DNA of 58,191 bases, the filler included, from Perkinsus olseni (lineage: Eukaryota): the NCBI GenBank assembly GCA_013115125.1. It is 4 parts of 4 records of this genome, joined end to end, with 100 filler letters (N's around TTAATTAATTAA, not from the genome) between each part and the next. Parts side by side here need not be neighbours in the genome. Positions count along the whole stretch, not along the records: positions 1 to 14,516 come from JABANN010000728.1; positions 14,617 to 29,125 come from JABANN010000729.1; positions 29,226 to 43,722 come from JABANN010000730.1; positions 43,823 to 58,191 come from JABANN010000731.1. One strand, given 5' to 3'. Below are positions 677 to 57,822 of the stretch, piece after piece. The stretch's first letter is position 1, and the number at the start of each line of letters is the position of its first letter. A program made the translations under genes and the position numbers. Below the pieces are notes generated by a model, which saw only the letters and a program-made list of their open reading frames with translations, was not told the origin of the DNA and did not search any database.

Positions 677-2348
677 TCAAAATTTCTGAAAGAGGAGTTG
701 GTCTCTGTCGTTAATGCTAGGTGTTGAGCCTTCCGACGATTCAGGGTACCTATGATCATACCCCTCCTTTCGCAAATCACACAGCACACTGAGCTCACTT
801 GTCGAACATCGATGTATCGTCTTCTCCTCTGACTTTCGGTATGAAAGGTGGAGCCAACTGCCGCGCCAAGACCTGCTCCCACTCGGCTCCCTTGAACCTG
901 TGGTGAGATTGTCTTGGCGTCTGCTTTGTGCACTTCTGAAACTAATATCTTAGCTCAGCACGTGCTATCTCAAGCTACTAAACTCCGAGTTAGTGGCAAG
1001 GTCCGATTGAAGACTAATCATCCTCAATAACTTCGTGTGAGTTGAGTGGCGGTGATGAACAAGAAGATTCGCTACAAACCCAGTAATCGCGGCCGACTGT
1101 ACAGACAACGCACTCGAAAGATTCTCACCATTTGTGTTTCTTGATATCATCAGCCCCATTCTTAAGACAACCAAATCGTTTGGAACGGTCATGCGCCAGC
1201 AACCGCTTGATGAGGTCCTTCCCTTTCACGTCGAAGTGGCGCGGGAAATCTATCTTCCCCGCCAGGATCTGAGATTCTCAAATCCACACAATCGACACGC
1301 CTGGGCTGCCAACCTTCTGATAAATTCCGAAAGGATTCTCATGATAGAAGGGCGGATAACCCGCAAGCATCTCGAAGATGAGGACTCCGAGGGCCCACCA
1401 ATCGACCGACTTGCCATGGCCTGACGACATGGAAGAAGTCATCGGATATCTCCCCGAGCATCTCCACCTTTCGACTGGATAATTTCCGGTGCTAAGTACT
1501 CGGGAGTTCCACACAAAGTCCAGGTTCGATCTTCAACCACTTTCGCAAAACCAAAGTCGGTGACTTTGACGTGGCCTGACGAATGACGACCGGTCGATGG
1601 AAGTATCGCCGAGGTCCATTCTCTCACCAGTGGAATCAATCAACAGGTTCTCAGGTTTCAAATCTCTGTAGACGATGTTCATGTCTGAGGTAAGCCGAAG
1701 GTCCCAGGTTCGAACCCCGGGAAAGACATACCATGCAAATATTGAAACGCCAGGATGATCTCAGCCGCATAGAACTTCGCATGGTCGTTCGATAGCCGCC
1801 CTTCCTTGCGGAGATGAGAGAACAGCTCCCCTCCATTAACGTATTCCATCAACATGTACAAACGCTTGTCATCCTGGAACGCCGTGAGCCTGAAGTCAGG
1901 GTGCTAGCGGCGTATCTTAGGTTGACCCCTGCATCACTCGGAATAGCTTACAGGTTGACAATATAAGGGTGCTCGATCATAGACAGGATCATCTTCTCCG
2001 CTTTAACATGCTCAACCTGAGGATGGACGCTAAGTAAGACAATTTCGTGGCGCGTGACGCTTACTTGTTTCAATCGAATCACTTCTGATTTTTTGAGCAT
2101 CTTCAGAGCCATCGGTGAGCCATCGTCCGAGTCCTTCAACTTCACCACTCGAACTCTCCCAAACGTACCTGCAGTCGGCCACTTTCTGACACCTCTAGCT
2201 CCACAATAGCTACACCTCACCAGTCCCGACAGTATCGCGCAGCTCGAACGAATTCACACTGAGTGCTCTCCCTTCCAACAGGCCTTTGAAACGAGCTATA
2301 TGGCTCTGAGAAAAACGTCACTGCGCCACGAAATTATTTCACCTCCAT
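677..2348 (-). CDS. PKA-C: cAMP-dependent protein kinase catalytic subunit (AGC kinase), about 10 exons
   Basis: Spliced translation includes [77 protein letters not shown] and C-terminal PPFIPK..DTSMFD..FQKF*. All introns are GT-AG and keep the frame. Confidence 0.96.
1691..1728 (+). pseudogene. tRNA 3'-half fragment (variable loop, T-arm, acceptor strand) inside a 47-nt PKA intron, antisense to the mRNA
   Basis: taagccgaAGGTCccaGGTTCGAACcccgggaaagaca fills most of intron 1685-1731. Confidence 0.75.
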
Positions 2349-2909
2349 CTCACATTGTCAGTGAGCTGATCAGCCGTGGGAGAGTCGGCCAAGATGCTGC
2401 TACCTTTCACTGAAAATGAGCACAGCGAAATCGTTCAACAGAGAGACGCGACCACACACAGTCCACGCCGCGGAAATTCTTATCAATATGTAGGGGCGAG
2501 GCTTCTCAGGGGAAAATTTTCCAAAAAAAAATCATGCAAATTTTTCACAATCTCGCTGAAGAAAGATACTTTTACTGGATCTCTTCATTAGCGCATGGAA
2601 CTCTTAAGGCTCGTCACTTACACGAAGATCCTCCTCCGCCACTTTCAGTCGACTTAGACGATTTCTTGCTACTGCCGAACATTCACAAACGCAGCAAAGA
2701 CCCTACAATGACAGAGATGCTGAAAATTTACGCAATTTAAAATCAACATAAACGACTCGATCTCCATGAGGGACCGCGAGAAGAACTCGAAGCGCGATCT
2801 TAAAAACGTGCAAAGATTCCGCGCATTCGGCCGACTGAAGGTTGTCATTGACAACACTACCAGAAATGACGTTTGAGAAACGTTTCTCGCTCGGTTCAAG
2901 GAACAAAAA

Positions 2910-5482
2910 CTACTCAATGATCTTCAACGACTTTTCAAAACTCACAGAAGCAATCTTGTCATCTCTGAAAAAGCAACAATAACAGCCGCACCCTGGCGAT
3001 CGGAAAGACGAAGATCTTTCTGACACCTCTAGCTGTGAACTTACATCTTGGAGAAGCACATATGCCGAATCGCGCCTCGTTCATGTACTGGTATTGTCAT
3101 CACTTTTTGTTGAGAGAACGTCTCGAATACGGCAAGACTGCCAATGTATGATCCTGAGCAGGAGAATCTTAGGTTGATCCATGCGCTACGCGAGTAGCCA
3201 GGGAAGCAGACGAGGGACAGATCTTGGCAATAGTAATGACATGATGTTACTGACGTACCGCTCTTATCCGTAGTGGTGGAGAGGACGAAGCTTCTATCGG
3301 CCGACACGGCAAGGGAAGGGTTGTCGTACTCGTCGATATCGATTCCGTAGTATCTACAAGGAATTAAGTGGAGCTATTTTGTATCTTGCCCGCGCAACCT
3401 CAAGATATGGTTACGTTCGGATAGGGGAGTGATGGAAGGCTCGGAACAGCAGAAGCTTATGCGCATCAGTGGCACAGAGGATGAAGGTGTGACCGTCCAT
3501 CGACCACGACAACCTGATCACATGGAAGGTCGCGGGTTCGAACCCCAGTGCATGCATTTTACATGTCTCGAATCCTGAAGCTGACATGTCTATCCAACTT
3601 ATGAGGATTCAACGAGTAATCACCAATGTTCTTCAGCGTCTCGCCCGAGTAGTAATGCATGTACCTGGACAGGGCGCATGAGTTCCGAAAGGAGTGGTAT
3701 GCACGAATGCACACGACTTACGGATCATTCTCAATCGCCATAGCCAATACTGGCTCATCACACTCAAGCCACGTAGCGGCAGACACTGGTTGAGCTTGAC
3801 GGAATAACCCAGTCTTTCTCCATTCAAAATCTAAGCACGATGTAAGAAGCGCGCGCCATAGTGATCGATTTCTCTCACCTTGCGTTCCCTCAACACGTGT
3901 CCGTTCGTAAAACTGGACGGTCATGTCGCGACACGCACTGAACAAAAGTAGCTCTCCATCACCCCTAACTTGTGGGTAGAATTGGCAGCGCAGAACCTGA
4001 GAGCGTTGAGGAAATGCAAGATTGCAAGATATAAAAATCTCTCACGTGTGTTTTGGTAGGGTGGGATGACTTGCCAACTTCTTCACCCGTCGCAGCGTCG
4101 AACGCCAACTGAAATCGAGCGGAAATCAAAAAAGGGAAAACCCGCGAGCTCTGAGAGAAACACCGAACTCTCGATCAGCTGCAGGAGATTTACCGGAAGG
4201 AAACAAAAATTGATGGCGATAATGACGCAGTTGGATTCTCCCAGAGAAATCTATCTTCACTCATTAATCATCAATTCTTTCATCAATTCAGAACGATAAA
4301 GTTGGTATCGCTATCCCGGTATCCTCAGGCGATAAACATATTTTGAGGATGGTGATGACGATAAGATGAACGAAAGGTGAGCATGATGCTCATTAATACA
4401 TCTGTGTGTGATACGAAATCGGCATGATAAGGCGTAATGTCGTAATTAACACGGATTTACCCACTATATTATGCCATCGATATCTTAGGTCGAAGCTGAA
4501 CAAATGCAGAGATAAAGATACCTACAACTTCGCCACCCATACACCCAACAGCAATGAATGCACCATCTGGGCTCCAGTCGAGGGACAGTACAGGAGAGGG
4601 GGCGCGGAAGACGAGGCCAGTGGGTTCGATGCCGGCTGAACGAAAATGGATCTTCGAACGTCCAGAGGGACGCTGCATTGGTACCTTCACTGTCCCTCCA
4701 AAGTTTAACTTCTCTATCGGCACCCCCGGTGGCCAGCAACGTCGAGTCCGTTGGATGGAATACCACGCAGGTCGGGTTGGCTCTAGCACCATGTGGAGCT
4801 GTGGTCGAGCGGACTGAGGCAACACTCTCCATCCCCGACCTCTAAACCCGCGCAGGTTCCATCCCACCCTACCGACTGCATGTGGAGTTACTCCAGGCTC
4901 CTTCACGATGCCTTCCAACAGATCCTCCGGTCCTCCTTCCGACTCATCACTATCACCATTGGCCGCGTACTGAGCTGAATACCTGAGCTGGCAAGCATCT
5001 CCCAGGAGAGTGGCAACACGGCCGTCGTCCCCCAAGGCAACTCATTGGCCACCGAAAGACCCACACGAATAGCCCTCTCAGACAGGGGCCCTACTACTGG
5101 ATAATTACCCGCCTACTGCAACCAGGATGAACAGGGTGGTGGTGTCAGTATAACTCATACCACTCCAACCACTCCCAACTTACCACATATCGATGGCCCT
5201 ATCCAAAATGCTGCAGTCGCTGCTGCCTTCGGTGAACTTAATGCCAGATTCACGCTGCAGAGTAGAGAACGCCTCGAGGTACTCGTGCTCCAAAAGATAC
5301 CTAACAAGCTCAACCTCGTGAGAATCTTTGATTCTGTGTTCATCACGGATCAAGCTTGGATACTACTGCAAAATAGCCTGTAACTGCGCATGTTTGGGCT
5401 TCTGCAAAACACCGCTCTCGCTGGATGAGGGGATGGACGCGGCCGCGCCTTCAATGATGATCTCGGGCTTGATGGTGGTCAT
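2910..5482 (-). CDS. LisH-domain WD40-repeat protein, multi-exon
   Basis: Spliced LisH motif LQAILQYLLEHEYLEAFSTLQRESGI. WD blades: CVVFHPTDSTLLATGGADREVKLW, VLSLDWSPDGAFIAVGCMGGEV, LLFSACRDMTVQFY, LSWSMDGHTFILCATD, IASVSFEKSLKIIE*. Confidence 0.85.
3518..3560 (+). pseudogene. tRNA 3'-half fragment with TTTT tail inside a 49-nt WD40-gene intron, antisense to the mRNA
   Basis: tcacatggaAGGTCgcgGGTTCGAACcccagtgcatgcaTTTT fills intron 3514-3562. The flanking exons join in frame (RDM|LSWSMDG). Confidence 0.75.
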
Positions 5483-5635
5483 ATAGGGGAGTCGAACCTC
5501 GCCGTTGAGGAAATGCAAGATTGCAAGATTGCCCACAACCCAACACTTGGTCGTATGATGAACAACGTAGCATGAACATGGCGCCAAAAAATGAGCAACT
5601 AATCGGAACTCCCGAAAAGCAAGTCAGAAGACTTC

Positions 5636-5661
5636 AAAATACCCTCACCAGGGATTGAACC
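5636..5661 (-). pseudogene. tRNA T-loop/3' end fragment directly after the stop codon of the neighbouring gene
   Basis: Minus strand reads TAG-GTTCAATCCCTGGTGAGGGTA-TTTT. Confidence 0.5.
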
Positions 5662-7998
5662 TACGCGGCCTCCGCTCCTTCGGCTTCCTCCTGAGCTGCA
5701 GCAGCCGCTGCCCCTTCGCCATCCGCAGCGGGGGCCTCTTCAACAGCCTGAGAGACACCTTTCTCATCCATCTCTCAACGAGGTCCTGCCTACCTGCTCA
5801 GCTTCAGTCGGCTTCTCGTCGACAACCTCTGCAGCTTGCTCCTCGTTCTTGCTCTCTTGCGATTCCTCAACGGTGGCATCATTCACAGGCTCTTCAGACT
5901 GGCCTCCATCTTGCTCCTGGCCTTCCAACGCTGCATCTCCCTCATTCTTGCTCTCTTGCGATTCCTCAACGGCAGCTTCAGCTGCAGCCTCTTCCTTCTC
6001 ACCCACCCCAGCTTCCTCCTCCTCACCCTCCCCCGACTCCTCAGCCACCGGCTGCGCATCCCCAGAATCTTGTTCATTCTTGCAATCTTGCGATTCCTCA
6101 ACGGCAGCTCCAGCTCCCTCATCACCCCCCGAGTTCTCATACTCGTCATACAACTTGTGTAGCTCCTTCCCACGCAGGCCTTCTACCATATTCCCGCGCG
6201 CCTGTTCAAAATAAAATCGCCAAAAAACTACCACCCGCCGACCAGCATCACCTTCGTTTTGATAGCCTGTGTTTGATAATAGATTTTCTTCAACTCCTTC
6301 TCCGTAGTGCCGGGGAACTTAGACACATCATCGTGGAACAGAGCTTCGCAGATCTGCATGAAGGTGACCACGTCGATCGAGCTTTCTTGGCCCTGAGAGT
6401 AGAAGAAGATAAAGAGACAACACTCGGCGATTCGGGCAAAGAGTCGTATCCACCAAACACGATTTTCATATCATTACCGATTCAGACGGGCCTATCAATT
6501 CTGCGGGGACCCGCAGAGACGCCAATGCATGATTGATCACTGATGAATACGGAATGGCAACCACCTCCTCCAAAACCATACCACATTTCTCCTAATTCTT
6601 CGACACCAGTTGCACTTCTTTCATACTATCAAATGCGCTTAAAAACCAGAATCTCCTATCTTCATGGTCACCAATAAAGCTGCCTTTTCGGCCTACCCAC
6701 CCCGGCAACCGACCAGATCCGAAGTCGAAGGCAACATCATATCAACCGCGCGAGCTTCACCCCTCCCCTCTCTCGAAACACTAAAAGCCCTCCATGACGC
6801 CTGCCCAGCCTGCTAAGAATGGGTACTATGCATGTCGGCTATGATTGCAGGCTTCGAGACCATCTGAGCCCTCATTCGGCCATGTTACACAAAAACGGAG
6901 GCCACAATGTCTTCCATCACAACGCTTTCAGCTCTAACGACGTTTCGAATTCTACGCGAGGATCAGAGCAACTGCCACCCCAACCACTCAAACCTACTAC
7001 CGTTAGATATCTCACGAGTAATATTTTTTGGATTTCAGCGTGAGAAAATTCATAGGGGAACTCTAAAGCCCTCAGAAGCGTAATCGACCGATCGAATTTT
7101 CTTTTCCTGAATCTTGATTTCAGCTTCAGACTTCCCTCAGCTTACCACGTCCCGAGCGTCGCATAAGTATTGGATTTGAGCGTGAACCGGCTGCAACTTC
7201 CCTCCAGCGGTCGCCAACTCGGCCAGGATCCCCTTCACGTATCTTCAGCGGAGGGTAGTTGGTGCTCGGTGAGACGAAGTAACCCCACCTGACAGGCAGC
7301 TTCCCTCCTTCATCCCTGTTCTCCGCCTGGTCGAATTGAGCCGCATAGGTAGGATACTTCTCACGGTACCTTTCCAGTGGATGAAAATAACAATAACAAC
7401 TTTCCGTAAAATCGCTAAAGAATGATAGCCGAGCATGAGCAGCGAACGATGGCGCTGTGAACCAACCGATAAGAGTCAATCCCTACTCACCCTTCCTCGC
7501 CTAACTCCGCCGCTGCAGATGCTTGGCCGTCCGCCGCCGCTTCAGCGCCACTGCTGTTAGCTTCGACCTGAAAACAATATATATAACGAGAATCGAACCC
7601 ACGACCTCGGGATAGTAAACGTGAATTACTATCCGACTGAGCTAAGCCCACTAACATTTAAACGGTGTGGAAAGACGATACCCCACCTGAGTTTCCTCTC
7701 CTCCCGCCTTCTCCTAACAACAAAAGGAAATCCTCCCGCAGCCACGATACCCCCACAAACTACCTCAACATCCGAGTTCAACTGCGGGAGCTCTTCCTGC
7801 GTCTGCTGAGTAGGATCTTCACCGGCCTGTTCGGTCTGACCAACGGCAAGTCGCCCTGCAACTCACTGTAGTCCGACAGCCATCCACTTCTACCGTAATC
7901 GGTTTGGACTCTTCCACTGTTTCTTTAGCATCAGCTGTGTCCTTGGCAGCCACCACTGCATTAGAATTACCTTTAGCGGCAGAAGCCCCGCAGCCCAT
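5661..7998 (-). CDS. Hypothetical protein with N-terminal myristoylation/palmitoylation motif and acidic C-terminal repeats
   Basis: Starts MGCGASAAK; multi-exon; EF-hand-like segment SIDVVTFMQICEALF; three VEESQ(D/E)(C/S)KNE repeats in ORF 5764-6234; ends AEGAEAA*. Middle exons are less certain. Confidence 0.6.
7585..7649 (-). pseudogene. Decayed tRNA-like sequence in intron 7568-7686
   Basis: GGGCTTAGCTCAGTCGG (A box) ... GAGGTCGTGGGTTCGATTCTCG (B box). The anticodon arm is replaced by the hairpin GGATAGTAA-n7-TTACTATCC. Confidence 0.7.
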
Positions 7999-8007
7999 TA
8001 GAGTAAA

Positions 8008-8050
8008 GCAGTGCGGTAATACTGAGAAGAACCCGGGTTCGATTCCTGCC
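8008..8050 (+). pseudogene. tRNA-like fragment with B box just upstream of the MGCGAS start
   Basis: gaagaacccgGGTTCGATTCCtg. A similar cccgggttcgtttccg lies at 8210-8226. Confidence 0.5.
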
Positions 8051-8247
8051 CTTTGAACACCCACAAGAGTGGTCAGGTTTTATATCGGGCCAACGGTAAA
8101 GTCCCGCTCACCTACGTCCGACGACGAAGAGACTTCCGACGGAGACTCGGAAACCAAACAAAATAATCGATTGCAATGGCGAGCGCTTCTTGCAGCATCG
8201 TCAGCGCGCGCCCGGGTTCGTTTCCGTTTTGAAAGGCTGTCATATTC

Positions 8248-10882
8248 ATGACGTTCGTGGATGATGGTGAGCCGATAGAGCAGCTCAAAGCTCCTTCATC
8301 GGCACTGTTAGGTGATCAGTAGCCCACCTCGATGTTTGCATGCTCAACTGGAGGAACTGGAGAGGGCGTTACAGACCCCTCACAACCGTGAGTTACCAAA
8401 GGAGTGGTATGGACACGTCCTGGGTATAATAACCCGCCTGTACAGATCCGATGGGGCGGATCTCTTGTCTTGTCAAGTTGGTTGCAAAGATGCTTTGCCT
8501 CACCCGTCGGTGTCCCAGCCAGCCCATCTTCTTACTGCCATCGTTCTCTCCTGATTTCCCAAAAATGTGGTATCTAATTTATTTCGTTTTTTAATATTGT
8601 ATACTGAATAATGCTTGTATCTGAAGTCAAGATATATCTGATTCTGAGTGTGAAGGAAGAAGCTCGTACAGGTCAAATCCCATGTGTTTCAGTCCGGAGT
8701 GACAAGGACGCCGCCAAGGGAACGATCATCTCACCGACGGGCCGAGGAGGAATCTTGAGGTCGGGACTCGACCTGGCCAGACTTGAGTTCAAAACCAACA
8801 AGTTGGAAGCGCTGTTAGAGGTGCCCTTGGTGGCCTTCCAGTGGGCGTGATTGCTCTCATATGAGCAGGCTAAAGGCCTCAGTGAAGAAACCGAGTCTGT
8901 GAAAAAAGAAGTTGATGAAAAATTTGTGATGTCGAAGTGAGTGATACGTCCGTACGAACGATGGACCACGCGTGGCGCAGGATGCTACCGGATGATGAGA
9001 TCAGGCAGGTTAGCGATTTGACACAAAAGCTAGCGCGGATAGTACAGGAGAGGAAAGAGCAGGAGGGTGAGTCGAGAAGGGGGTGTGAGGAAATGGGAAC
9101 TGGGTTTGGAATGGGTAGAGAAACACTTCAGTTGGGGGAGCATCGGTGGGCTAGGGTTTCGAGTAATCGTATGGTCCCCGGTTTGATTGCTGTTGGCGAA
9201 TATTTTTCGCACGAGTAATTTCACCCGCCCTTCTCAGACGAGACAAACCGACTAGTGCAGGAGCTGAGTATCTCCCAGCTGAAAATAGCGGAGATCGAAA
9301 GAAAACACGGGCGCGTAGCGAAAGACTTCACCGGCAACACTGCCAGTGAACGTCATCACCCGATAGGTGCCCGAAGGGGATGAGCAGCTCCAACCACCTC
9401 CAGAAAATCTCTACGATCTTTACGCTCGGCAAGAGGACCTCGACCGACGCATCCTCCTCCGTGAGCTCGCTAATAGCGACTCTGTAGGAGATGCTCGTGG
9501 GGCGCGGACTAGGAAGAGATGAGTTTCGCCTCAGCCGATGGATCGCCTCGAGGCAGAGAAGTACCACTGGATAACGCACAAGCTGACCGCGGGGCCAGCA
9601 CAGTTCCAAAACGATAGTGAGGATTGGTTCTGTGGAAAGACGTGGGAGTATTGTCGTTTGCATAGAATGGCTGGATGAGCAAATAGAGGAACTGAAGCGG
9701 GCCAGCTTTGAGAAAAACGGAGAGGAAGAGGAAGAGATTGATACAAAGCGATTTCTCGAACTCGCACAGAAACAGCTCATTACCATTAGAGAACGGGTAC
9801 GTTGTTGTGATTCGCCTGTGGATTGTTAGATGTTGGGCAAAGGGTTTGATGGTATCTTCTCGTCCTTGCCAGCGCGAGGCCATTCACGCGAGGAGGGGGA
9901 GGGATGTGGGTGTGAACAGGGGAGATCTCCTGAAGGAGGTCATGTACCCTAACCAGTTCGAGGAGCTCATGTGAGTGCATGGGCGGAGTTCTGATCTGGT
10001 GGAAATGTGGTACGGCGAAGTCGGTCTTGCGGAACCCCCCGATGGAAGAACAGTGGCAGTAGCGGACGATTATGTCTTATTCTCAACCTTGTCCTCGCAT
10101 CTTCCCGTCGTTGCATTAGACCTCCTCTCGGCACGTTCGAATGACTTGAGCACTCGTTCCCAGTTTCCATTTTTCCTCAGAGTCCGAGCTCAAACAGAGA
10201 AACTGTTGATGACTTCACAGACCACGCTAGTCGACAATTACCTAAACTCTCGCAAGGTGCAGTTTGGCGGTGTAGCGAGTTGGACAGGGAGCGCCTTCAG
10301 GGCCGCGAGCTAGATCTACCAATAGCAGATCCAGTCGTTGAGAAGACTTTTCATCCGCCGAAAAAAGACCGCAGGAAGAAGGCCAAGGCATTCCTCTTCC
10401 TCGTTCTACACAAACGCCACTCCCGCCTCTCTTTCAGGCGTTGTTGCACGACCGAGCGGGCCCTAATGATGCTGCTAACGAGGAAGCGTGCGAAACATGG
10501 GCCAAATATGATCCTGCTGTGAGCGTCGAGCCGGTCTGGTGTGCTTTTAATGGGAAACTCGCAGGTTGTGAATCCGATGACACGCGAGGCTCGACAGATG
10601 TTGGACGACCTCAAACGAGAGAAGGAAGAGTGGGTGAAAGTAGCTCTTGAACAGTGGGAAGAAGTTGCAGAAAAAAATGAAGGTGAGAGGCTGTGAAATC
10701 GGGCTGTCTTTTATTTTTATCCGTCAGCTGCAGAGGAGGAGATTATCTGCGATGATGTGCCGTTGCCAGACGAGAGAGTTGCTGATGATGATTCGGTCGT
10801 TTTAGTCGGCATTGACGATCCCCATGAGAGTACTGTTGTTGTGCAGCACGTTGTTGACCATGACGAAAATAATAATGCCTGA
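8248..10882 (+). CDS. Hypothetical coiled-coil protein (one or possibly two multi-exon genes)
   Basis: Series of GT-AG bounded E/K/L-rich exons (ARLEFKTNKLEALLE, EWLDEQIEELKR, RQMLDDLKREKEEW) ending DENNNA*. No family recognised. Confidence 0.5.
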
Positions 10883-11160
10883 TGTGACAAGGATGTTGTT
10901 TTAGTTTTCAGTGTAGTCGGTCAGCAGCTCGCGTCGTACGTGTTTCCGCTCCGTGTGGACGAGGTAACAGTCCAATGCAACTACCGTGAGGGTGTATCAG
11001 GGTATACAGGCTCTCATCCCGAAGCTCATTCGGCGGTCGCACTAGTATCGTACTCATACCTCTCGACCTTCATACTAGGGCCGGCCACGGTTGACCAGCA
11101 GCCACTAACGCAACTCTGGTCGAGTAGACATCAACAACACCCTTGCCACACATACACCCG

Positions 11161-11912
11161 TCAATGTCTTCTTGGACGCTTTCCCTCCCCCTCCTCATCT
11201 CTCATCTTTCTCTTGTGCGAGGACCGAGAGGCCTCCTTACGTTCCTTCTTGCTTCTTATTTTCTCAATCTCATGCAACATGTCATCTCTGACACTTTCAT
11301 AGAACGCCGTCAGCCAGCTCAAGCCTCGAAAACGGCCCACGTACTTCCCCGGGGGGTTGTCGATCAGCTCCTCGGCAATGCTGATGCATCGTTTCATATT
11401 CGTGTGCACGTCCGTGCTGTTCTTCAACGCGTTGCTCATCAGAATTTCCTTGCTCGTTTCAGAGAGCATCCTCCAGGGCGAAAAGCGCTGCATCTTCTCA
11501 CGGCGTCGAGTCCTACCACTCCTTGTCCAACTCCCAGGCTTAGCTACTATCAGTAGGACGTCCTCGTCTGTGAACTCCCTGAAAGGGATTCTGCGGAATA
11601 CGGGTGATGTCGCAGCGACCTCACACGGTGTATGAGTAACCATGGACTGAGTCCGACAACCACGATGTAGCGAGGCCATCTCTTTCATTGATTTTAACGG
11701 TGTACGACAAGAAGGGTTTACTTTGATAAAAGGCACACTCCAGTCTCTCGGTGGGGCTGACCATGATCTGAACAAGAGGGCAAGTAGGGAGAGGGTCTAA
11801 GGTGATATCGTCGTACTCTCTCATCTCTCAAGATCCTACCATCGAAGATGCGGGCAGTGGACGACGCAACCGATCCGACGGTAGAGGCGAAGAGAATAAA
11901 GTTGGAGACCAT
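11161..11912 (-). CDS. Hypothetical protein, possible signal peptide and basic C-terminus
   Basis: ORF 11161-11775 with a helical core and KKERK..KRPRRH tail. An upstream frame begins MVSNFILFASTVGSVASS. Confidence 0.4.
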
Positions 11913-13420
11913 GGTCACGATTCGGAAACGTGGAGAACGGGCGAGAATACAGGGTGTCAAGCACATTCTGCTGATGATCAGCAGCAGCAGCAGCTGATAC
12001 TATCTTGCCTCTACGCTGAAGCGGGCTAAGTGGGGGATGACAAGAAGGCGGCAGACGAAGGTTATGACCCCGGATGGCAAAACTCGGGTGTTATCTTCTG
12101 AATGAGTCGGCCCCTAGCCAAGGGTATCATGCGAGTAAACACAACAAGACAACGTCATGCATCCCCATGAAATAGCATCTCCGACCGCGAGGTCGTAGCT
12201 GGTGGGAGATAGCATGTCTCGCCATACTCAGTACTCATCTCGAGTCCACAAGAACACCTACCTTAACAGGGCTACATGCATATCTTATCTTCTGGCTTCT
12301 TCCACATCATTCTTTACGATTTCATCCGCCCCTTGTTTCACTCTTCATTCTTCATCGACGACCAGAACCAGTTGAACTGGCGAGAGGGAGTAGCAAAGCG
12401 TCTGCAAGGGCGTCCAGTTAACTCGAAACCCGAACTCATACATCAGTGTCTGTTTTCAAAAAATGGCGGTCCATCTTCGGCAAGTTGCGGTAAAGTAAAC
12501 CTCGACCAACTCCCGTGGGTTGAGCTTGGGGCCCTCACACTTTGAAGGACCCCTACACTACACGACTCATGACTCGTGTCAATGCCCCCTCAGCTGACGA
12601 ACGCGCCATGAGAACACGAGAAGCAGAGCTGAGCTAACCGTAGCTGAGCTGACTGGAACCTTATGGAAGCCAAGCTTACACGGCATAGCTGCCGTCTCCG
12701 CGTTCCCCAGGGAGGCGAGACGTGACCGCCTTGCTGAGGCGTGCGCGAAAGCCAGCCAGGTACGTACGACTGGGGAGAGGATAGCCAAAACATCCGCGAG
12801 AATTCGCAGAGCGTAGCTTATGGGCTGCGTGTAGAGCATATGCGTTCTTTGAGTTGCGTGCGCTCCCCGTAGCCCCACGCGCACTTACAACCAAATTCCA
12901 AGGGAAAATTCCGCTCGTCCGCACTGGCCAAAGGCACTGACCAGAATCCAAGGACTCTGACCGAAATCCAAGGCGGGCGACCAACGTGCTTCCTGTAAAG
13001 TTTACACTGCGCGGCCCTCGGCCTTTAGGTCGCCCCGAAGGCGAGCTGAGTCGGGTATCGGGTTCACAGGGGTTACGGTCAGCACTCCCCACAGACTGGA
13101 AAACAGACGCCTTGCCCTGGGTGAGACGCTTTCGCTCACCCTGCGCTGTCTCCGGGGACATCCCCTTGGATTTTGTACTTTTGTACTTTTGTACCCTTCG
13201 ATTCTGGTCAGCTGTCCCGGAATTTGTACTTTGCCCGTTCAGAGCGCGTATTTTTGTGCGCAAAATGGTAAAGAGGAATTCCGGGAGGGTAATTAGCAAA
13301 ACACGTTCAAAATGCTTCCATGGGAGCATCTTCAGGGATCGCCCCGGGTAACAGTTCCGGGACCGGGTTTCGGGAAGGGTTTCTGGTGTCTTATTCCTGC
13401 CTTCACCCGCAATTCAGGTT

Positions 13421-13498
13421 TCTTGTCTTGTCTTGTCTTGTCTTGTCTTGTCTTGTCTTGTCTTGTCTTGTCTTGTCTTGTCTTGTCTTGTCTTGTCT
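13421..13498. repeat. (TCTTG)n pentanucleotide microsatellite running into an assembly gap
   Basis: About 15 perfect TCTTG units before the N run. Confidence 0.95.
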
Positions 13499-20638: not shown

Positions 20639-20651
20639 GGTAGGTGCTGCA

Positions 20652-29225: not shown

Positions 29226-29295
<70 letters not shown>
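29226..29295. repeat. (ACT)n microsatellite
   Basis: About 23 perfect units at the contig edge. Confidence 0.95.
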
Positions 29296-45545: not shown

Positions 45546-46789
45546 TGTTCTGGGGCGTGAGGGAGTTTTGATTTTTTTCAGGTCCGGAGTCTACTATGTC
45601 GGAGGAAGGAGAAAAATTTGATGCTAAAAATGAAGAGGCGAAGAAGACTGAAGGTGAGACAGGAGAAAGCAACCTTGACAGGTTGGGGAACTTCATTGCA
45701 GATGAGAAGGAGAACGGCTTTGACGACGGGAATCGCAGAGAAAACCCTTCAGGAGAAGAATGCGATTCTGAAAATGAAGAGGTGAAGAAGCGCGGGCGGA
45801 GCACTCCCGACTGTAGTCCGGGGAAAGGTAAGGAGACAGCCGAGGCTCCAAATAAGCCGAGGCTAAACTAAAGGCCCTCTCAGATATGGGGTCAAGGGAG
45901 AAGAAGAAGAGTAGAGAAGCAGAGCGTAGAGGATTCGAGAGCTCTGTTCGTGAGCGGCCCCGCCGTAACAGGCCCCCTCCTGCCCGCTATGCAGCCTAGC
46001 CCATGCGCATCTCATACAGTAATGAAGTGCATCCGCCATTACAAAGGTGCTTTAATTTACCAAACGGACTCTGGAAAGAAGTCCTAGTCTGACCCAGGAG
46101 TGTCTGGATTAGGCAACTAGAGGTCGTCTGACGACAAGTGAGACGACTCGTCTCACTTGTTACCAGCCGTTATAGTAACCATGCATTTGCGAAGAACTTC
46201 ATTTTCGTAACAAGGAGTTCGGTTTGAATTCGCGAGTGAGGGTTGCGGCAAGGACCCGCAAAAAAGTGGTCATTCAATATGGGTGTCTCGTGCATCGTCA
46301 GCAGGCACACTCTTGCTCTACTCCGCCTCCTTCACTCGGAAGGAGGTAGGGGAGACAAGAGCAGGGAGATGTGACCAACCCGATATTCCTGAGCAAGCCA
46401 ATCAGACCTGTTTTTCGGAGAGTGAAGGTTATTGAGTTCCCAGTGGCCGTATCTAAATCGGAGATCTAAATCGGAATAAATTAAATCACAGAGATTTTAA
46501 ATTAAAATTCATACCTGCCATTCGGGCGCGAGCTACTACCCGAGTGGAGACTGAAAGAGGGGCTATAAGCGATAATCCGAAACAGGAGCTGTTATCCGGG
46601 TGCGGACTGTTTCCCCGGTGCGAGAAGGAAAAAAACCGGCGATTGCAAGTGAGAGCCCCCATCCCGGGCAGAGCTGTTATCCGCGTGCGGACTGATACCC
46701 AACAGTCCGATTGCGGGACTGAAAGGGAACATGTCAGGTATGGTACCATGTCAGAGGTTTATAACTCAGTTTCCGCTCAAAAAAACATC

Positions 46790-47058
46790 GCTTAGATTTT
46801 CACCGTCTCCAGCTTAGATTTTAACCGCTTAGTTTTTCGCCGCTTAGATTTTCACCGTCTCCAGCTTAGATTTTCACCGTCTCCAGCTTGGATTTTAACC
46901 GCTTAGTTAATCGCCGCTTTGATTTTCACCGTCTCCAGCTTAGATTTTCACCGTCTCCAGCTTAGATTTTAACCGCTTAGTTTTTCGCCGCTTATTCTCG
47001 GGCGTGCGCTTTTCTTCTTTAGATTTTCGCCCTCTCGCTTAGATTTTCACCTCCTACC
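46790..47058. repeat. Modular subterminal tandem repeats, likely the MULE terminal region
   Basis: Interleaved units cttagattttcaccgtctccag (22 bp), cttagattttaaccg and cttagtttttcgccg, ending at cacctcctacc. Confidence 0.75.
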
Positions 47059-47164
47059 TTGGATTTGGAGAGGTCGCGGACCGCGATCCGATAACGAGGT
47101 TGCCATATCTTGCGCTCTTAGAGTTCCCTTACACGACCGAGCAGGATTTGAAATGGTCAGCGGC

Positions 47165-47586
47165 CCTCTGCCTTGGACACGCTACACTCCTATGCATGGC
47201 CTNNNNNNNNNNNNNNNNNNNNNNNNNNNNNNNNNNNNNNNNNNNNNNNNNNNNNNNNNNNNNNNNNNNNNNNNNNNNNNNNNNNNNNNNNNNNNNNNGC
47301 CTCATGTACGGGAAGTAGTGGCCTCGGTAGGGCACAAGCCGCCAAATTCGGTCTGGTGTCTCGAACTGTTCGAATCGAACAAAACGATCCTCAAGACGCG
47401 CGCCACTTTTCGAGGCGCGTGAGCCTCTGCCTTGGACACGCTACACTCCTATGCATGGCCTCATGTACGGGAAGTAGTGGCCTCGGTAGGGCACAAGCCG
47501 CCAAATTCGGTCTGGTGTCTCGAACTGTTCGAACCGAACAAAACGATCCTCAAGACGCGCGCCACTTTTCGAGGCGCGTGAGCCTC
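47165..47586. repeat. 160-bp tandem repeat spanning an assembly gap
   Basis: The unit cctctgccttggacacgctacac...cttttcgaggcgcgtgag is repeated almost identically. Confidence 0.92.
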
Positions 47587-52250: not shown

Positions 52251-52339
52251 TTTGAATTAAATAACGCTTGTAACACTATTAAAGTGAAGCTAAACGTGGC
52301 AAGCCACTGTATCATCACTAGCGTCTCTAGTCTCTAGGG

Positions 52340-52374
52340 AAAGGTCCTAGGTTCGACTCCAGCACCCGGCATTT
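52340..52374 (+). pseudogene. tRNA 3'-half-like fragment between divergent gene starts
   Basis: aaAGGTCctaGGTTCGACTCCagcacccggcattt. Confidence 0.6.
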
Positions 52375-52423: not shown

Positions 52424-55400
52424 ATGTCCAGCATTCACGAAGCAGCTGCTGCTGGAGACCACCGTCGTATCATGAGGATGGTCTACTCGGGTGAGGAGCG
52501 ACCTTTGCATTTCTTATCACAGAAACTATATTTTTTTTTCATCTGGCGCCAACTGTTTACGGATTTTTCAAGAAAGCAATCCGATAGTAGCGACATGGGG
52601 GCGTTACAGCATAGGCCTGATTCGCTGGTGGATCATGCGATTGAAGACTGATTCGCAGATGCGGGATTGAAGGTCGAAATGCGTCGATTTCTTCTAGCTG
52701 GCAAGGGCGCGTAGAAACTGACTGCGGTTTGCGGCAAAATGTATGCATCTTGATGAATCACGCAATCTTACTAAGTGTGATTGAATTTTTGCTCATGAAA
52801 GCAAAGCTTTAAAATTGGCAGTAGGTGAGGGATCTCCGGATCGACTCACGGTCACTTGCTCGCCTTGAGTCGGATAACTGTGCGTCCTTCTGTGGAGGCC
52901 CTTCATGATATGACCGAAGGAATCTTTCTTTGATCTCGACCTGACCGACATTCAATCACCCTTCGATCAGGTATGGATGTCAACTCTGTTGACGAGTATG
53001 GACGGACGCCTCTGCACGTGGCTGTACAGGAAAAGCAATTGGACGCGGTAGTGCCGAGGCGGTTCGTCTTCTCAGGAATCTCTTGCGGTCTTCTTTCGAT
53101 GTGTTGCTGAATTTTCGGGAGATTTATGGTATTAGAATGTGAGCATTCCCGTTCTCCTATCAGGTGAAAGCTCTAGTGATGTGTCGAGCTCGGGCAGACA
53201 TAAAAGATTCTCTCGGGAAATCTTGTGACCGATTGGCGGAAGAAGTCTGGTTCGAATTGAGTTCTCAGGGTGAGTGCTGGTCCATCACGGACTTTCCTTA
53301 ATAGTCCTTTGCTGAGCTTTCTGCTATAGAGTTTCCCGAAAATCAGTGGATTGATTCAGCTGAGTATGTCGTCCTCTGTGCTGGGCGCGCGTCAACTTCC
53401 GCCAGGGAGCACCTGATTGAGGCTCTCGAGTGTTGATTGCGAATCTGTCATTTTCTCATGGGTTCCCATTGTTTCCTTTCTTTAATTGCAGTGATTACTC
53501 AGCTTCGCCGCGCTCATACGGTAGCAGTTCCGTTCGGTGCCGTTGCTGGAGGCATTTAGTGGTTGAAGAAGATTCGTTTCTGCGGGGATTGGTCGCTCTC
53601 AGGTTGCCCTGAGAAAAGCAAGCTCGGTGAAAAGATACGCTATTTTGTAGCGCTTTATCCTGGGGGGAAGAGAGTTGCGGACACGAGGAAGATCATGATT
53701 CAGAATCAACATCTACCGCGATTTCCTCCATTCCTTCCTGCTAGTGGCCCGGAGGGTGAGAATCTTGCGGCTGCGCGAAAGCGATAAAGAGAAAAAATGC
53801 TTGATATGAGGTTCGAGCCATGGGCCCTTTGGTTGCAGGTCAGCCGCTCATCCGGAAGGCCATAATCATCGGGCAAGCGCACTATGAAGCGAACGGGCAG
53901 AGCATCCATCACGCCTTGGCCGATTCCCAAATAGTTGCACATCGTCTGAGTCGTATAGGGTATGATGTCACTGTAGGTATCAATTTGGAGACAGAGGAAC
54001 TGCGGAGGTATCTTCGAACCCTATACAGAGCGTGAATCAACTTAAGATACGCCTTAGATGCCTGATGGATGGACTTGATGAGCTGGAGCCCGGCCCTCTT
54101 CGACTGGTTATATATTTCATCGGTATGGTCGAGAGGAGAACCGATGCGGCCGGACGGAGGGAATCTTTGCTGTGCGGCGTGAACCGTCGGTAGTACATCA
54201 ATGGCGAATACGGTTTGCGGCCGATCGTGATTGAGAGATAGCATCTCGAGTCCCCTTCCCGGTTGAGAGTGTTGACGCAAGAATATCTTCTTACTCGCCC
54301 AGCCCTCGGTGAACCTCGAAGATGCCTGAAGATTTCTGTTGCAGATTTTCGCCTGCCCGAATGCCCGAGGACCTCGCTCTTGAGGAGTTACTCAAAACTC
54401 TGGAAGGGAAAATGAAATTCGGTTCGACTGCTCTGATGGTTGTTGATGCCACCAGGTGCGTCACTGCGCCACGAAATTAGCGCCGTCGGAGGTAGAACTC
54501 TTTTAGATCTTTCTCGACCGTTCCGGGAGGGCTTGAGCGAGGATCTCCGTCGTGTGGCGTCGTTACACCACCGATGGTCACGCACAGCGAAGGATTCTTG
54601 GATGCCGAGCAGGCAGCATTGGCGACTGTGCTCGGGAGAATACCGTCATCATCAATGGGGCTGAGGTCATGGTACTGCGGGAAGAAGAAGATATGTTTTT
54701 GTCAGGCGCCACGAAATTATGTAAGGCTGGAGAGTTTCTCAATTTTCAGCGTCGGCATGAACCAGTTTTCTCCGGACCGCAGCTTCCCCTCGGACTTCTA
54801 CAGTGGGGCCTCTGTCCGATCCGATTTAGACTACGTGGCATCATGCGGGCCTTATCCTGCTGAGGTAATCGATCACCTGATCGATTTTATCTGGGAGTAT
54901 CTTTCTGTCAGGTTGGAAGAGGTATTTCTTTGCTGTGCGCGCATCTACCAAATAAACTACTACCTGCAGAATTTTTCGAGCCTTTGTCAATGATTTTCTC
55001 GGACGGTCAGTATTCCTATTTCGCAATTTTCCTTACTTTGCTGCATTCAGAGTCGACTACATCCCTTCTAGCTCCGGAAAAGGCTCAGATTGACCGAATG
55101 GTGGAGCTCTCAGGAATCACCAGGAATTGCTCCGTGAAGGTGATAACCCTTGGAAGTTTGTCGGTGTATTGTCTGAGTCTCTGGTGGCCACGAGCTTGCT
55201 GCTGCGGGGTGTTGCTCGTCACTGTCCTTCAACAAGTTATTACGTTATTTATCCCATTCTTGTGTGACGGTGGCTAAGCTCGGATATTCCTGCGGAGTTT
55301 GTGTAGTATCCAAGCTTGAGCTGTATCAAACCAGGGTGGGGTATCTTTGTGAATATCGTATCATATTGGGCTTTCAGTCGAGGGAAACGCTCAGGAAGCG

Positions 55401-55728: not shown

Positions 55729-55792
55729 GGGCGAGTCCGGGTATGGGAGGATCTTGGATTTTTCCGCAGCCGGAAGATTTTTGGCGTCCTCG

Positions 55793-57822
55793 ATGGCCTT
55801 ACTCGCGTCCTCGCTGCTGTCGAACGTTTTCGGCGCTCCCTGCGAGTTGGACCTTCAAATCGATGCCGAGCCGGGCAGGAAGAAAGCGCCGGTTACTCGT
55901 GACAAAAAGGGAGAACTCGGATACATCTTTACTGTATTTGCGCACAGCGAAGGATTCAGGATACCTTTTCTATTGGCAGGATGGCGAGGACGTTTGTGGC
56001 ACGGCGACGGTCCGTCTGAAGGGCGACAAGCGGTTGGAGCATCAGGGAATCAGAGTCGAACTCATTGGGCAAGTTGGTAAGAAAGTGAGAGTTTGAATTT
56101 CTCCGGACCGGTTATTGGTTGCCTCGGGTTTGGTACTTGAGCTGTTATGTATCATCCTTGCTTCGACCTTAGATATGCTCTATGACCGATCGAGCTCGTA
56201 CGACTTCTTCTCGATCGCCAAGGATCTGGAGCCTCCGGGAGTCCTCACTGAAACTCGAAGCTACAAATGGAAGTAGTACTCCATTCTCATCTTCGGTGTG
56301 TTGCACACAACCCAGCGGAATACGTGTACACAGTCGCCGTTCCACCACTCCCTAGTGCGGTGACACTGTGTGTGTAGTGTCACCACTCCCTAGTGCGGTG
56401 ACACTGTGTGTGTAGTGTCANNNNNNNNNNNNNNNNNNNNNNNNNNNNNNNNNNNNNNNNNNNNNNNNNNNNNNNNNNNNNNNNNNNNNNNNNNNNNNNN
56501 NNNNNNNNNNNNNNNNNTGTGTAGTGTCACCACTCCCTAGTGCGGTGACACTGTGTGTGTAGTGTCACCACTCCCTAGTGCGGTGACACTGCGTGTGTAG
56601 TGTCACCACTCCCTAGTGCGGTGACACTGTGTGTGTAGTGTCACCACTCCCTAGTGCGGTGACACTGTGTGTGTAGTGTCACCACTCCCTAGTGCGGTGA
56701 CACTGTGTGTGTAGTGTCATCACTCCCTAGTGCGGTGACACTGTGTGTGTAGTGTCACCACTCCCTAGTGCGGTGACACTGTGTGTGTTGTGTCACCACT
56801 CCCTAGTGCGGTGACACTGTGTGTAGTGTCACCGCACCGTAGTGCGGTTCCATCACCACGGAGTGAAATTATCGACAACAGCCACTCTCCGGGAAGACGC
56901 GCGACGTGACGGATGGCCGGAGCGAGAATCGCCGAGTATGATTATCCCTCCCGCATCTCTCAGGTTCTCTTCGGTGGATAAAACGTGCGAGACTTATAAT
57001 GGAATCAATGTCCGCCTCCGATACTTAGTCCGACTGGTTGTGCAGAGGCCGTATGCGACGTAATAGTAAAGAATAGCTAGAGGTGTCAGAATAATGAGTC
57101 CATCAGGAATGTTTCCAAGGAGGTCGATTTTGCAGTGCAGCTTGTCCAGCCCCAGCCCGAAATGAATACCAGTATCAAAATGGAGGTAGGAGAAGGCAAC
57201 GGATCGGGCCATGAGATTTCCCCTGCAGGTCGGGATTGAAGATTGCCTTCACATCGAGTTTGAGTATTCCCAGTCGAAATTCAACCTGAAGGATGTCGTC
57301 GTTGGGAAGGTGTATTTCCTTCTGGTGAGGCTCAAAATAAAAGTAAGTGACGACGGTTTCAGTCGGCGCCAGGAATAGATGCTCGTTTGCAGCACATGGA
57401 GTTGGACATTATTCGTCGCGAGGTCACGGGCGCTGGTGCCGGCTCCAATCAACTCGGTGGTACAACAGATAATGAAACTGTCACCAAATTCGAGATTATG
57501 GATGGAGCACCAGTGAGAGGTAGTGAACTGTGAACTCGATGTATCGCTGCTGCACGCGGTTCACTAGCTTATTGAGTATCATCTGTTATTTCCTGCTCAG
57601 CCGAATGCATTCCAGTCCGCCTTTACCTGTCCGGGTTCGACCTCACCCCTACCTATAAAAATGTCCAGGTGGGCATGAGTACGAGCAGTGAAGTGGGTGA
57701 TTGTGTGGTTTCAGAATAAATTCTCGGTGAGATACTTTCTCAATTTGGTGTTGGTCGACGAAGAGGATCGGCGATACTTCAAACAGCAAGAGATCACGTT
57801 GTGGCGGAAGACTATTGGATGA
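55793..57822 (+). CDS. VPS26: Retromer subunit VPS26
   Basis: [91 protein letters not shown]. Confidence 0.97.
56343..56833. repeat. 38-bp hairpin-containing minisatellite inside a VPS26 intron
   Basis: Unit caccactccctagtgcggtgacactgtgtgtgtagtgt; at least 10 copies visible around an N gap. Confidence 0.95.

Follow-up and report, generated by a model that had tools for sequence, protein, structure and literature searches.

A 17-nt word, AGCTAGAGGTGTCAGAA (motif A), recurs without a single mismatch in three short introns of Perkinsus olseni, reads sense to the host gene in each of them, and matches the consensus of eukaryotic LSU rRNA over its full length. Motif A appears to belong to a set of exact blocks with sharp limits (the others being B, C, F, and tRNA-like stretches) that recur among these short introns. 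We consider it a serious possibility, one that stops short of probable, that motif A is a dispersed intron-resident short repeat from an rRNA-like template.

The window, that is, the whole stretch of DNA analyzed, is 58,191 nt in length, filler included, and joins parts of four contigs of the assembly GCA_013115125.1. AGCTAGAGGTGTCAGAA was found in it three times, always exact: at 2184–2200 and 3018–3034 on the minus strand and at 57075–57091 on the plus strand. A search at 1–3 mismatches revealed no near-copies in the window, only the same three exact copies. With up to 3 mismatches, three matches were observed against 0.17 expected, and none of 100 shuffles reached three; with up to 2 mismatches, 100 dinucleotide shuffles contained no match at all. 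A chance origin of the three copies is excluded by these shuffles. The two minus-strand copies are identical over 19 letters (2182–2200 and 3016–3034), with an extra A and G on the 3′ side. All three copies are in GT-AG introns, in the sense direction of the respective gene, confirming the initial annotation, which had reported the same word in three introns in the direction of the host mRNA; with three copies, chance alone would give this orientation with a probability of 1/8. The perfect identity without degenerate copies fits purifying selection as well as youth.

The copy at 3018–3034 is located in the last intron of a WD40-repeat gene (2965–3044, minus strand, 80 nt, GT-AG), defined by the RNA contig joint 2964>3045. 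This joint (CT..AC on the plus strand, GT..AG on the minus strand) was present in all three RNA-like runs (X7, X8, and X11) and absent from the one DNA run (X1). Of runs X9–X20, which contain small shares of the sampled words, X11 alone entered the contig comparison. The copy at 2184–2200 is located in an intron of the gene for the PKA catalytic subunit (2169–2220, minus strand, 52 nt, GT-AG), identified by the continuity of the frame and of the Pkinase profile: removal of the intron joins ...GTG to TFGRV, restoring a kinase glycine loop split by the intron, and the profile match starts at profile position 10 directly after it. No RNA joint for this intron was among those listed from the contig comparison. 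The third copy is located in an intron of the VPS26 gene (57060–57106, plus strand, 47 nt, GT-AG), also identified by frame and Vps26 profile continuity; the intron starts with in-frame stops, and the ORFs on its two sides match profile positions 101–132 and 128–162 in different frames. Protein comparison places the source organism as a Perkinsus close to P. olseni, and the proteins of the three host genes are 67–77% identical in sister species. The smallest of the 12 RNA-confirmed introns was 48 nt, and the shortest intron reported for P. marinus is 39 nt. Intron prediction for the window from GT..AG sites and ORFs produced 885 clusters, which were far too noisy and were discarded.

Outside the 17–19-nt block, the three introns (52, 80, and 47 nt) are unrelated. 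The position of the block within them varies (10, 15, and 20 nt from the donor; 53, 15, and 15 nt from the acceptor). Folding of the introns gave z-scores of +1.26, −1.56, and −1.55, with 187, 13, and 16 of 200 shuffles folding at least as well, and did not reveal a common fold. A mirtron or hairpin intron was rejected, there being no stable hairpin and the context of motif A differing among the three folds. Visual inspection of the copies revealed neither terminal inverted repeats nor consistent target-site duplications, and a MITE was rejected on these grounds; 4-nt direct repeats were seen at the borders of the WD40 intron (AGAT) and next to the PKA copy of the block (GTGG), with none in VPS26. 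The lack of such termini and duplications, together with the sharing of 17–19 nt rather than of whole introns, counts against reading motif A as a repeat.

The Rfam consensus of LSU_rRNA_eukarya (RF02543) at model positions 2795–2811 is agcuagAGGUGUCAGAA, identical to motif A in 17 of 17 positions, and continues with AAGUUACCAcAGGGAUAAC; this is the continuation given in the initial annotation together with the proposed LSU match. The reference here is the consensus of the eukaryotic family rather than the host's own LSU rRNA; contigs resembling human DNA were excluded from the contig comparison, and a true rRNA contig could not appear there. Published methylation sites of yeast LSU rRNA (G at 2791, 2793, and 2815) were used to set the register. 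All three fall on G in one alignment only, assuming no yeast indel across 30 nt, and motif bases 6 and 8 are accordingly taken as the putative snR48-guided sites, so that motif A would cover the two G's methylated via yeast snR48, in agreement with the earlier proposal that it belongs to the region targeted by this guide. Box C/D guides have 10–21 nt of complementarity next to box D or D′ and follow the +5 rule relative to box D. Under this rule, pairing of the guide that serves the first snR48 site would begin at motif base 2, close to the limits of the block. A neutral repeat predicts neither the 17/17 identity nor a start within one base of the predicted guide pairing. The snR48-type modification is common to yeast and Arabidopsis.

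Among 19 metagenome loci retrieved with the 17-mer, it lay inside Rfam-called LSU rRNA at 5. The remaining 14 were non-rRNA according to Rfam (13 if L023, LSU-like by eye, is set aside) and represent about seven independent events: a repeat family (4 loci), one pair, a conserved gene (3 loci), and 4 singles. By a rough estimate of database size, the non-rRNA loci are about as many as expected by chance. No Perkinsus-like contig was found among the retrieved loci. The 17-mer had five matches in viral contigs, none of them in rRNA and none related, and we found no paper containing it. Comparison of the blocks with Perkinsozoa spliced-leader sequences revealed no resemblance.

When the window was compared with five fragments of the LSU 3′ half by blastn-short, the three copies of motif A were the sole matches, which argues against a general scatter of LSU pieces in the window. 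The window contained no match to a snoRNA family, either at the gathering threshold or at E ≤ 1; the Rfam search identified two tRNAs and sub-threshold miRNA-like matches on palindromes and minisatellites. The PKA intron searched alone had two chance-level matches (E of 0.68 and 1) and no LSU match because the piece is too short.

Other blocks were encountered in the same genes and elsewhere in the window. Block B was present in four copies and in both orientations. One (2041–2059, minus strand; CGTCAC-GCGCCACGAAATT, one base shorter) is sense in PKA intron 2017–2064, and matches of 18–21 further DNA contigs end or begin there. Another (2316–2338, plus strand; CGTCACTGCGCCACGAAATTATT; 14–19 further contigs) is antisense to PKA and lies 10 nt upstream of acceptor 2306 of the first PKA intron (donor 2342 or 2353). 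The third (54459–54479, plus strand), 21/21 identical to 2316–2336, stands directly behind the donor of a likely intron, predicted from sequence, that ends at 54506. A partial copy (54706–54720, plus strand; GCGCCACGAAATTAT) lies in either an intron or an exon, the ORF being open across it. Block C, 27 nt in length (ATCTTGCAATCTTGCATTTCCTCAACG on the minus strand), occurs twice on that strand: at 4004–4030 in WD40 intron 3997–4045, supported by RNA contigs, and, 27/27 identical, at 5503–5529 in the likely WD40 intron 5497–5545, where an X8 contig piece ends at 5496. The latter copy is common to nine further DNA contigs. Block F (GTAGTATCCAAGCTTGA, donor site included) also has two copies; it forms the first 17 nt of WD40 intron 5301–5366 (5350–5366, minus strand, supported by RNA contigs) and of the predicted, likely intron 55303–55377 (55303–55319, plus strand). 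A PKA intron of 47 nt (1685–1731, minus strand) consists mostly of a tRNA T-arm-like stretch (GGGGTTCGAACC...), and a similar stretch was found in a WD40 intron of 49 nt (3514–3562, minus strand), the latter supported by RNA contigs. The tRNA likeness of block B was noted by eye only, with no Rfam match to the block, and block C resembles a neighboring coding repeat rather than a structural RNA. Neither B nor C had matches in viral contigs.

In the WD40 gene, 5 of the 12 RNA-confirmed introns had an exact match of at least 14 nt elsewhere in the window, compared with 1 of 11 internal exons. After masking of tandem and segmental repeats, 37 distinct 16-mers recurred more than 200 nt apart, versus a mean of 0.78 (maximum of 5) in 40 Markov-3 simulations; they group into seven families. 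The blocks that are not rRNA behave like motif A, and an explanation specific to rRNA is therefore not required. The interpretation first offered, capture of an rRNA fragment or a snoRNP-binding site, thus stands in its LSU identity, intronic location, and sense orientation, and loses ground in its dependence on rRNA and for want of a snoRNA in the window.

Further genomic copies were evident in DNA run X1. The matches of eleven contigs continue to position 3036, beyond which the contigs diverge (consensus agreement of 0.45); this count is biased, since contigs were included only if they matched beyond the 17-mer. The flanks of these contigs and of the three copies in the window are unrelated, so the copies do not extend into a longer repeat family. 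In the same run, 14–21 contigs diverge at the ends of block B and 9 at block C. On other contigs, blocks were found joined in several arrangements (B head-to-head with B, B-C, C-B, B-spacer-B, and C-spacer-C) at a depth of 79–98, versus 85–87 for long contigs, i.e., at about single copy. The spacers in such strings are 19–26 nt, and some of the strings are present in RNA-like runs. On one contig, A and B are separated by 22 nt; this contig has a depth of 83.8 in DNA and of 2653 in the RNA-like run X7. In the PKA gene, A and B occur in the same order and orientation as on this contig (2338–2316 ... 2201–2183). The rough chance of this adjacency is 0.02 if blocks may fall at any place in the window and about 0.1 if only the intron-rich 10 kb is considered, and it could be a coincidence.

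According to the preferred reading, that of a dispersed repeat, short, sharply bounded, exact blocks would be common to very short spliceosomal introns and to other single-copy loci, with motif A as one family. Its immediate source would not be the rDNA array; more likely, it would be a strongly expressed, rRNA-like single-copy locus in which 22 nt separate A from B. The blocks may have spread via some copy-and-paste process, the copies being seen in DNA that is transcribed and spliced out. With the block removed, no more than 30 and 35 nt would be left of the 47- and 52-nt introns; the block therefore probably arose together with the intron or took the place of older intron sequence, rather than being inserted into a working intron. 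The identification of the source locus, the way in which the blocks spread, and the view that the block itself need have no function are our inferences.

The rRNA identity itself suggests another explanation, namely that the block is retained since the pre-mRNA offers 17 nt seen by a box C/D snoRNP of the snR48/snoR1 type or by an rRNA-binding protein. Methylation of the intron, slowed or steered splicing, or titration of the snoRNP would be the predicted effects. The complete match to the LSU consensus, the single register placing the snR48 sites at bases 6 and 8 with guide pairing near the block limits, the modification common to yeast and Arabidopsis, the constant sense orientation, and the absence of degenerate copies from the window are all consistent with it. 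However, blocks B, C, and F, which are not rRNA, are equally sharp, exact, and intron-bound; block B occurs in both orientations, the distance of motif A to the splice sites varies, and the window contains neither a snoRNA at the thresholds used nor other LSU 3′-half fragments. We regard this explanation as rather unlikely.

The sizes of the blocks (17–28 nt; the tRNA-like ones measure about 30 nt), their sharp ends, and their rRNA- and tRNA-like origins point toward small RNAs: the blocks could be DNA copies of abundant, discrete rRNA and tRNA fragments pasted one at a time or as strings at repair or at intron birth, or targets of small RNAs from the block-string loci. The strings with 19–26-nt spacers at other loci, some of them in RNA-like runs, agree with such a link, as does a plant small-RNA library that contains miRNA-labeled RNAs from exactly the same rRNA hairpin, as judged against the LSU consensus. 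The resemblance of block C to a coding repeat, rather than to a structural RNA, and a tRNA likeness of block B that is visible by eye and blank in Rfam count against a small-RNA link, which we consider unlikely. It appears decidedly unlikely that minimal introns are built or patched from small-RNA-sized units (an LSU rRNA fragment with snR48 sites and tRNA-derived pieces), the rRNA unit being kept exact by the intron engaging the matching snoRNP or small-RNA machinery. If true, this would be an undescribed link between ribosome-modification guides and the origin or splicing of introns.

We consider it very unlikely that the 17-mer is a target-mimic end left in introns by a mobile element of the Dada type that targets LSU rDNA beside this word. 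No element body, inverted partner, or duplication was found at the three copies of motif A, and the known Perkinsus Dada families target tRNA genes and not rRNA. Dada sub-terminal repeats of 7–9 bp also occur in the U6 and U1 genes that the elements target, and P. marinus has five Dada families, both of which would favor such an element. In the expressed rRNA-like locus, the likeness to the rRNA consensus ends directly after ...CAGAAA, and a metagenomic LSU rRNA (L021) is interrupted directly after the same word, but L021 belongs to an unrelated organism (GC of 0.61) and has no second copy of the word. A clean MITE in the window (18465–18987), with 25-bp inverted ends and a 5-bp duplication, indicates that DNA transposons are present in the genome.

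Three independent captures of rRNA or rDNA as break-repair filler, chance, or an assembly artefact are scarcely credible and already disfavored: rRNA is plentiful, and other systems are known to use distant templates for filler DNA, but shared ends in three copies and at least 11 more copies are not expected from capture, the shuffles dispose of chance, and an artefact is contradicted by the precise excision of a motif-bearing intron in RNA and by six DNA runs from two studies, possibly including the assembly source, that contain all sampled words of window positions 1500–4500.

It is a long-standing question how new spliceosomal introns originate and with what they are filled, and Perkinsus adjoins the dinoflagellates, in which introner elements are rampant. 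Introns of 47–60 nt with exact internal blocks of sharp limits, one of them matching a conserved and methylated segment of LSU rRNA at every base, provide a compact and countable test system for two questions: whether reusable units make up the introns, and whether the ribosome-modification machinery reads an intronic rRNA look-alike. If the blocks are neutral repeat debris, they would still warn against assuming a regulatory role for every intronic word that is identical to rRNA.

Introners and introner-like elements of Micromonas, Aureococcus, fungi, Amoebophrya, and other dinoflagellates are intron-confined repeats in sense orientation, with several families per genome. One report places introners in sister lineages of Perkinsus and describes those of Amoebophrya as having inverted repeats of 8–20 nt at the intron ends and direct repeats of 3–5 nt (PMC7789003). 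Beyond that paper, which includes Perkinsus for comparison only, our literature search revealed no work on intron motifs or introners of Perkinsus, although supplements of introner surveys might list it. Motif A resembles introners in being intronic and sense in all three copies of the window and in belonging to one of several block families. Unlike introners, which are alike over the whole intron, the introns described here share only an internal 17–19-nt block, with unrelated flanks and no end repeats; an introner or introner-like element was rejected for lack of whole-intron likeness and of common end pairing.

In 1997, Mauro and Edelman reportedly described short rRNA-identical stretches in mRNAs and primary transcripts and proposed that they affect expression. 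Motif A is likewise a short rRNA-identical stretch inside Pol II transcripts, but those matches were scattered and varied in position and orientation, whereas the introns described here repeat a single word whose ends are fixed. Among box C/D snoRNAs, SNORD115 acts on the 5-HT2C pre-mRNA, and similar cases are known. In the same manner, a guide of the snR48/snoR1 type could pair with the pre-mRNA segment, since the word would cover the snR48 sites by register; unlike the SNORD115 case, the mimic would be of the rRNA target itself. We know of no described intronic mimic of a snoRNA's rRNA target.

Dada transposons are 4.7–11 kb in length, carry target-mimic sub-terminal repeats of 7–9 bp, and target U6, U1, and tRNA genes (PMC3706591). 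Motif A is, similarly, a short exact copy of a structural RNA gene, in a genus in which the Dada family occurs; however, it is 17 nt in length and is seen without any element. The nuclear introns of Toxoplasma contain insertions of organelle DNA, with many short fragments from a mosaic source. The likeness lies in short foreign fragments in alveolate introns and in a mosaic source; in contrast to organelle DNA, the word found here is of the eukaryotic cytosolic LSU type, and the loci with joined blocks have single-copy nuclear depth.

Motif A, a 17-nt word (AGCTAGAGGTGTCAGAA), has exact copies at 2184–2200 (-), 3018–3034 (-) and 57075–57091 (+); the two minus-strand copies have 19 nt in common. 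A motif search of the window reproduced the coordinates of the initial annotation, give or take an optional extra A, and found no fourth copy at up to 3 mismatches; 11-nt sub-words of A led back to the same three sites. The WD40 intron (2965–3044, -) is defined by the joint 2964>3045, CT..AC on the plus strand and GT..AG on the minus strand. When public contigs were aligned to window positions 1–13500, this joint was seen in all three RNA-like runs (X7, X8, X11) and was missing in the DNA run X1; with eleven further like joints it defines a minus-strand WD40-repeat gene. The PKA intron (2169–2220, -; GT...AG) was assigned from reading frame and the Pkinase profile, with no RNA joint among those listed. 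Once it is removed, GTG and TFGRV meet to give the kinase glycine loop; the profile begins at position 10 immediately after the intron. The VPS26 intron (57060–57106, +), also assigned from frame and profile with no RNA joint among those listed, has in-frame stops at its start; the ORFs on either side match Vps26 profile positions 101–132 and 128–162 in different frames. Thus, as first proposed, all three copies are intronic and sense to their hosts (RNA joints for WD40, frame and profile for the others), an orientation that has a chance of 1/8 by itself. A VPS26 intron holds a 38-nt minisatellite (56300–56850), and another, complex minisatellite is at 46750–47320.

The claimed rRNA identity holds at the level of the eukaryotic consensus: A equals positions 2795–2811 of the Rfam LSU consensus model (17/17), since the printed consensus reads ...gaagcuagAGGUGUCAGAA.AAGUUACCAcAGGGAUAAC...., and the continuation given in that annotation is the same as in the consensus. 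Bases 1–8 of A form the 3' strand of a hairpin there, and the remainder is a single-stranded junction. Among the window's repeat families, A alone matched the LSU 3' half. A mouse 28S qPCR primer overlaps its letters (excerpt of PMC9757062). Metagenomes were also scanned for A followed by AB, with B standing for any base except the canonical next one. This gave 19 loci; the LSU_rRNA_eukarya model spans A in five of them (L007, L010, L011, L013, L021), and a sixth (L023) is LSU-like by eye. Loci L008, L012, L014 and L019 (GC 0.41–0.44) carry the 18-mer at one same point of a common repeat, with similar sequence after it, and probably go back to a single chance match that a repeat of some eukaryote has multiplied.

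With tandem and segmental repeats masked, the number of distinct 16-mers that recurred more than 200 nt apart was 37, versus a mean of 0.78 (maximum 5) in 40 Markov-3 simulations. They form seven families: A, three other intron blocks (B, C, F), one made by the inverted ends of a MITE, and two in which a pair of copies lies in probable coding DNA. Exact matches of at least 14 nt elsewhere in the window were present in 5 of 12 RNA-confirmed WD40 introns versus 1 of 11 internal exons. Block B, CGTCAC(T)GCGCCACGAAATTA, lies in sense in the PKA intron 2017–2064, in opposite orientation at 2316–2338 upstream of the acceptor of the first PKA intron, at 54459–54479 immediately after the donor of a predicted intron (no RNA joint among those listed), and partially at 54706–54720; its likeness to the 5' part of a tRNA is by eye only. 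B (2041–2059) and its reverse complement (2316–2338), about 257 nt from each other, flank PKA exons 2–3 and the A intron as inverted copies that might pair over about 19 bp in the pre-mRNA. Block C (27 nt) occurs in two WD40 introns, at 4004–4030 (-) and 5503–5529 (-). Three 19–28-nt units related to C, in opposite orientation, were observed at 5846–6109 as the coding repeat VEESQE/DSKNE of an acidic-protein ORF (5764–6318, -) with good coverage in the RNA-like runs. Block F is the opening 17 nt, donor included, of the WD40 intron 5301–5366 (-) and of the likely intron 55303–55377 (+; no RNA joint among those listed); these belong to different genes, and their sequences diverge past the 17 nt.

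The MITE-like element (18465–18987, about 523 bp) is clean, with perfect 25-bp inverted ends (18465–18489, 18963–18987) and the 5-bp direct repeat CTTTC at both flanks. An exact 17-mer recurs 1.36 kb apart (54581–54597, 55941–55957) in probable coding DNA, one copy being VPS26 exon; about 0.15 such chance words are expected per window. ORF 37363–37977, beside a reverse-transcriptase (RVT_1) fragment (38716–39066, -), has a 16-mer in common with a PKA exon (at 2094–2109), both encoding ALKML. Introns 1685–1731 and 3514–3562 are mostly tRNA T-arm-like; reversed T-arm/variable-loop-like stretches fill these and ~52330–52365, all short introns or intron-like GT..AG. P. marinus reportedly has a very large number of tRNA genes, as well as Dada transposons that target tRNA genes (excerpt of PMC3706591 for Dada). 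A 122-nt tRNA (20517–20638) was called by Rfam (36.9 bits) and not by ARAGORN, with several local duplications around it (19.6–20.8 kb).

Further copies were found in the DNA run X1, where at least 11 contigs follow the window to 3036 and then diverge; divergence occurs at B ends in at least 14–21 contigs and at C in at least 9, all lower bounds biased by the required match past the bare block. The flanks at A, B and C are unrelated, because consensus agreement past the block is 0.37–0.47. Joined blocks lie on contigs of about single-copy depth (79–98 versus 85–87 for long contigs, among those listed), arranged as head-to-head B, B then C, C then B, B–spacer (19–26 nt)–B and C–spacer (24 nt)–C. 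The head-to-head joints 2059>2316 and 2060>2316 were each present in at least 2 DNA contigs, the first also in at least 1 X11 contig. On one contig, reverse-oriented A is followed, after 22 other letters, by B. This contig reaches a depth of 83.8 in DNA and of 2653 in X7, compared with about 380 for the WD40 mRNA in that run. In the A sense, this RNA tracks the LSU consensus through ...CAGAAA and departs immediately afterwards, its upstream part loosely resembling the consensus by eye; we took it for a diverged rRNA-like single-copy locus. The order and orientation of A and B are alike in the PKA gene, where 114 nt, including an exon, separate them (rough chance estimate 0.02–0.1).

Without the block, the host introns of 47 and 52 nt would measure 30 and 35 nt. 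The shortest RNA-confirmed intron here is 48 nt, and the intron-rich genes of P. marinus have introns mostly below 100 bp with a minimum of 39 (excerpt of PMC3101222); block-less introns would fall under both minima, likewise for the 48–52-nt introns with B and C. Since known minimum lengths would be undercut, the block was apparently not simply inserted into a working intron and would have arrived at intron birth or replaced older sequence. Our tentative reading is that A is a short repeat, dispersed and resident in introns, whose copies derive from an rRNA-like template. This fits best because the copies are exact, sharply bounded and restricted to introns, belong to one of several such families, recur elsewhere with unrelated flanks and also stand joined to other blocks. 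However, neither a mechanism nor end repeats or duplications were seen, the likeness does not span whole introns, and the exact copies with no degenerate ones beside them, combined with the coincidence of A and a snoRNA footprint, suit selection.

That footprint rests on yeast 25S, in which snR48 guides Gm2791 and Gm2793 and snR38 guides Gm2815 (excerpt of PMC5199042), with an equivalent site tabulated for Arabidopsis snoR1 (excerpt of PMC3511168). On the Rfam consensus, a single register places G at each of the three yeast sites. Presupposing no yeast indel across these 30 nt, this register makes A yeast 2786–2802 and puts the snR48 sites at bases 6 and 8 of A, so the proposed snR48 overlap is probable; an Rfam search of the window gave no snoRNA of any family. 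Given the box D +5 rule, pairing of a guide for the first site would presumably start at base 2 of A. A snoRNP or RNP decoy would account for the limits and sense orientation of A, but it leaves B, C and F unexplained and has no guide RNA in the window; we consider it rather unlikely.

An Araucaria small-RNA pair catalogued as the novel miRNA Aang-nmiR055 also overlaps A (excerpt of PMC6448024). Its arms, as excerpted, match both sides of the LSU hairpin (model ~2760–2817) and, judged by sequence, are most likely rRNA fragments. The blocks might be copies of discrete RNA fragments or small-RNA targets, with which their sizes and strings agree, although we regard this as unlikely.

In L021 (1–441, GC 0.61), a metagenomic eukaryotic LSU rRNA, the rRNA sequence ends directly after ...GTCAGAAA and 422 nt of unrelated DNA follow, which marks an insertion or an intron there. 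A break after ...CAGAAA, present both in L021 and in the expressed A–B locus, would suit relic ends of an rDNA-targeting element, analogous to the target mimics of Dada transposons (excerpt of PMC3706591); we find this quite improbable. Independent capture, chance or artefact is disfavoured as very improbable; A-like matches at up to 2 mismatches appeared in 0 of 100 dinucleotide-preserving shuffles.

Elsewhere in the window, a ChAPs (exomer cargo-adaptor) domain protein is encoded, in an alveolate, at 30743–32161 (473 aa; identity 96% with a Perkinsus olseni protein, 77% with P. marinus, 67% with P. chesapeaki); a protein search gave only these three Perkinsus homologues of similar length. 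Perfect palindromes with one base between arms (21786–21858, 36+36 nt; 21644–21684, 20+20 nt) gave Rfam miRNA-family matches below threshold. (AAGAC)n and (ACT)n runs lie beside N stretches (13421–13500, 29226–29290).

Blocks common to Perkinsus introns were not described in the article texts searched. The nearest known kind is the introner, which the account for Amoebophrya gives as repeated introns with inverted ends of 8–20 nt and direct repeats of 3–5 nt. The three A introns have neither whole-intron likeness, which defines introners, nor introner-type end repeats; therefore, the A blocks, read as a dispersed repeat, are not an introner family, and they may work like introners.
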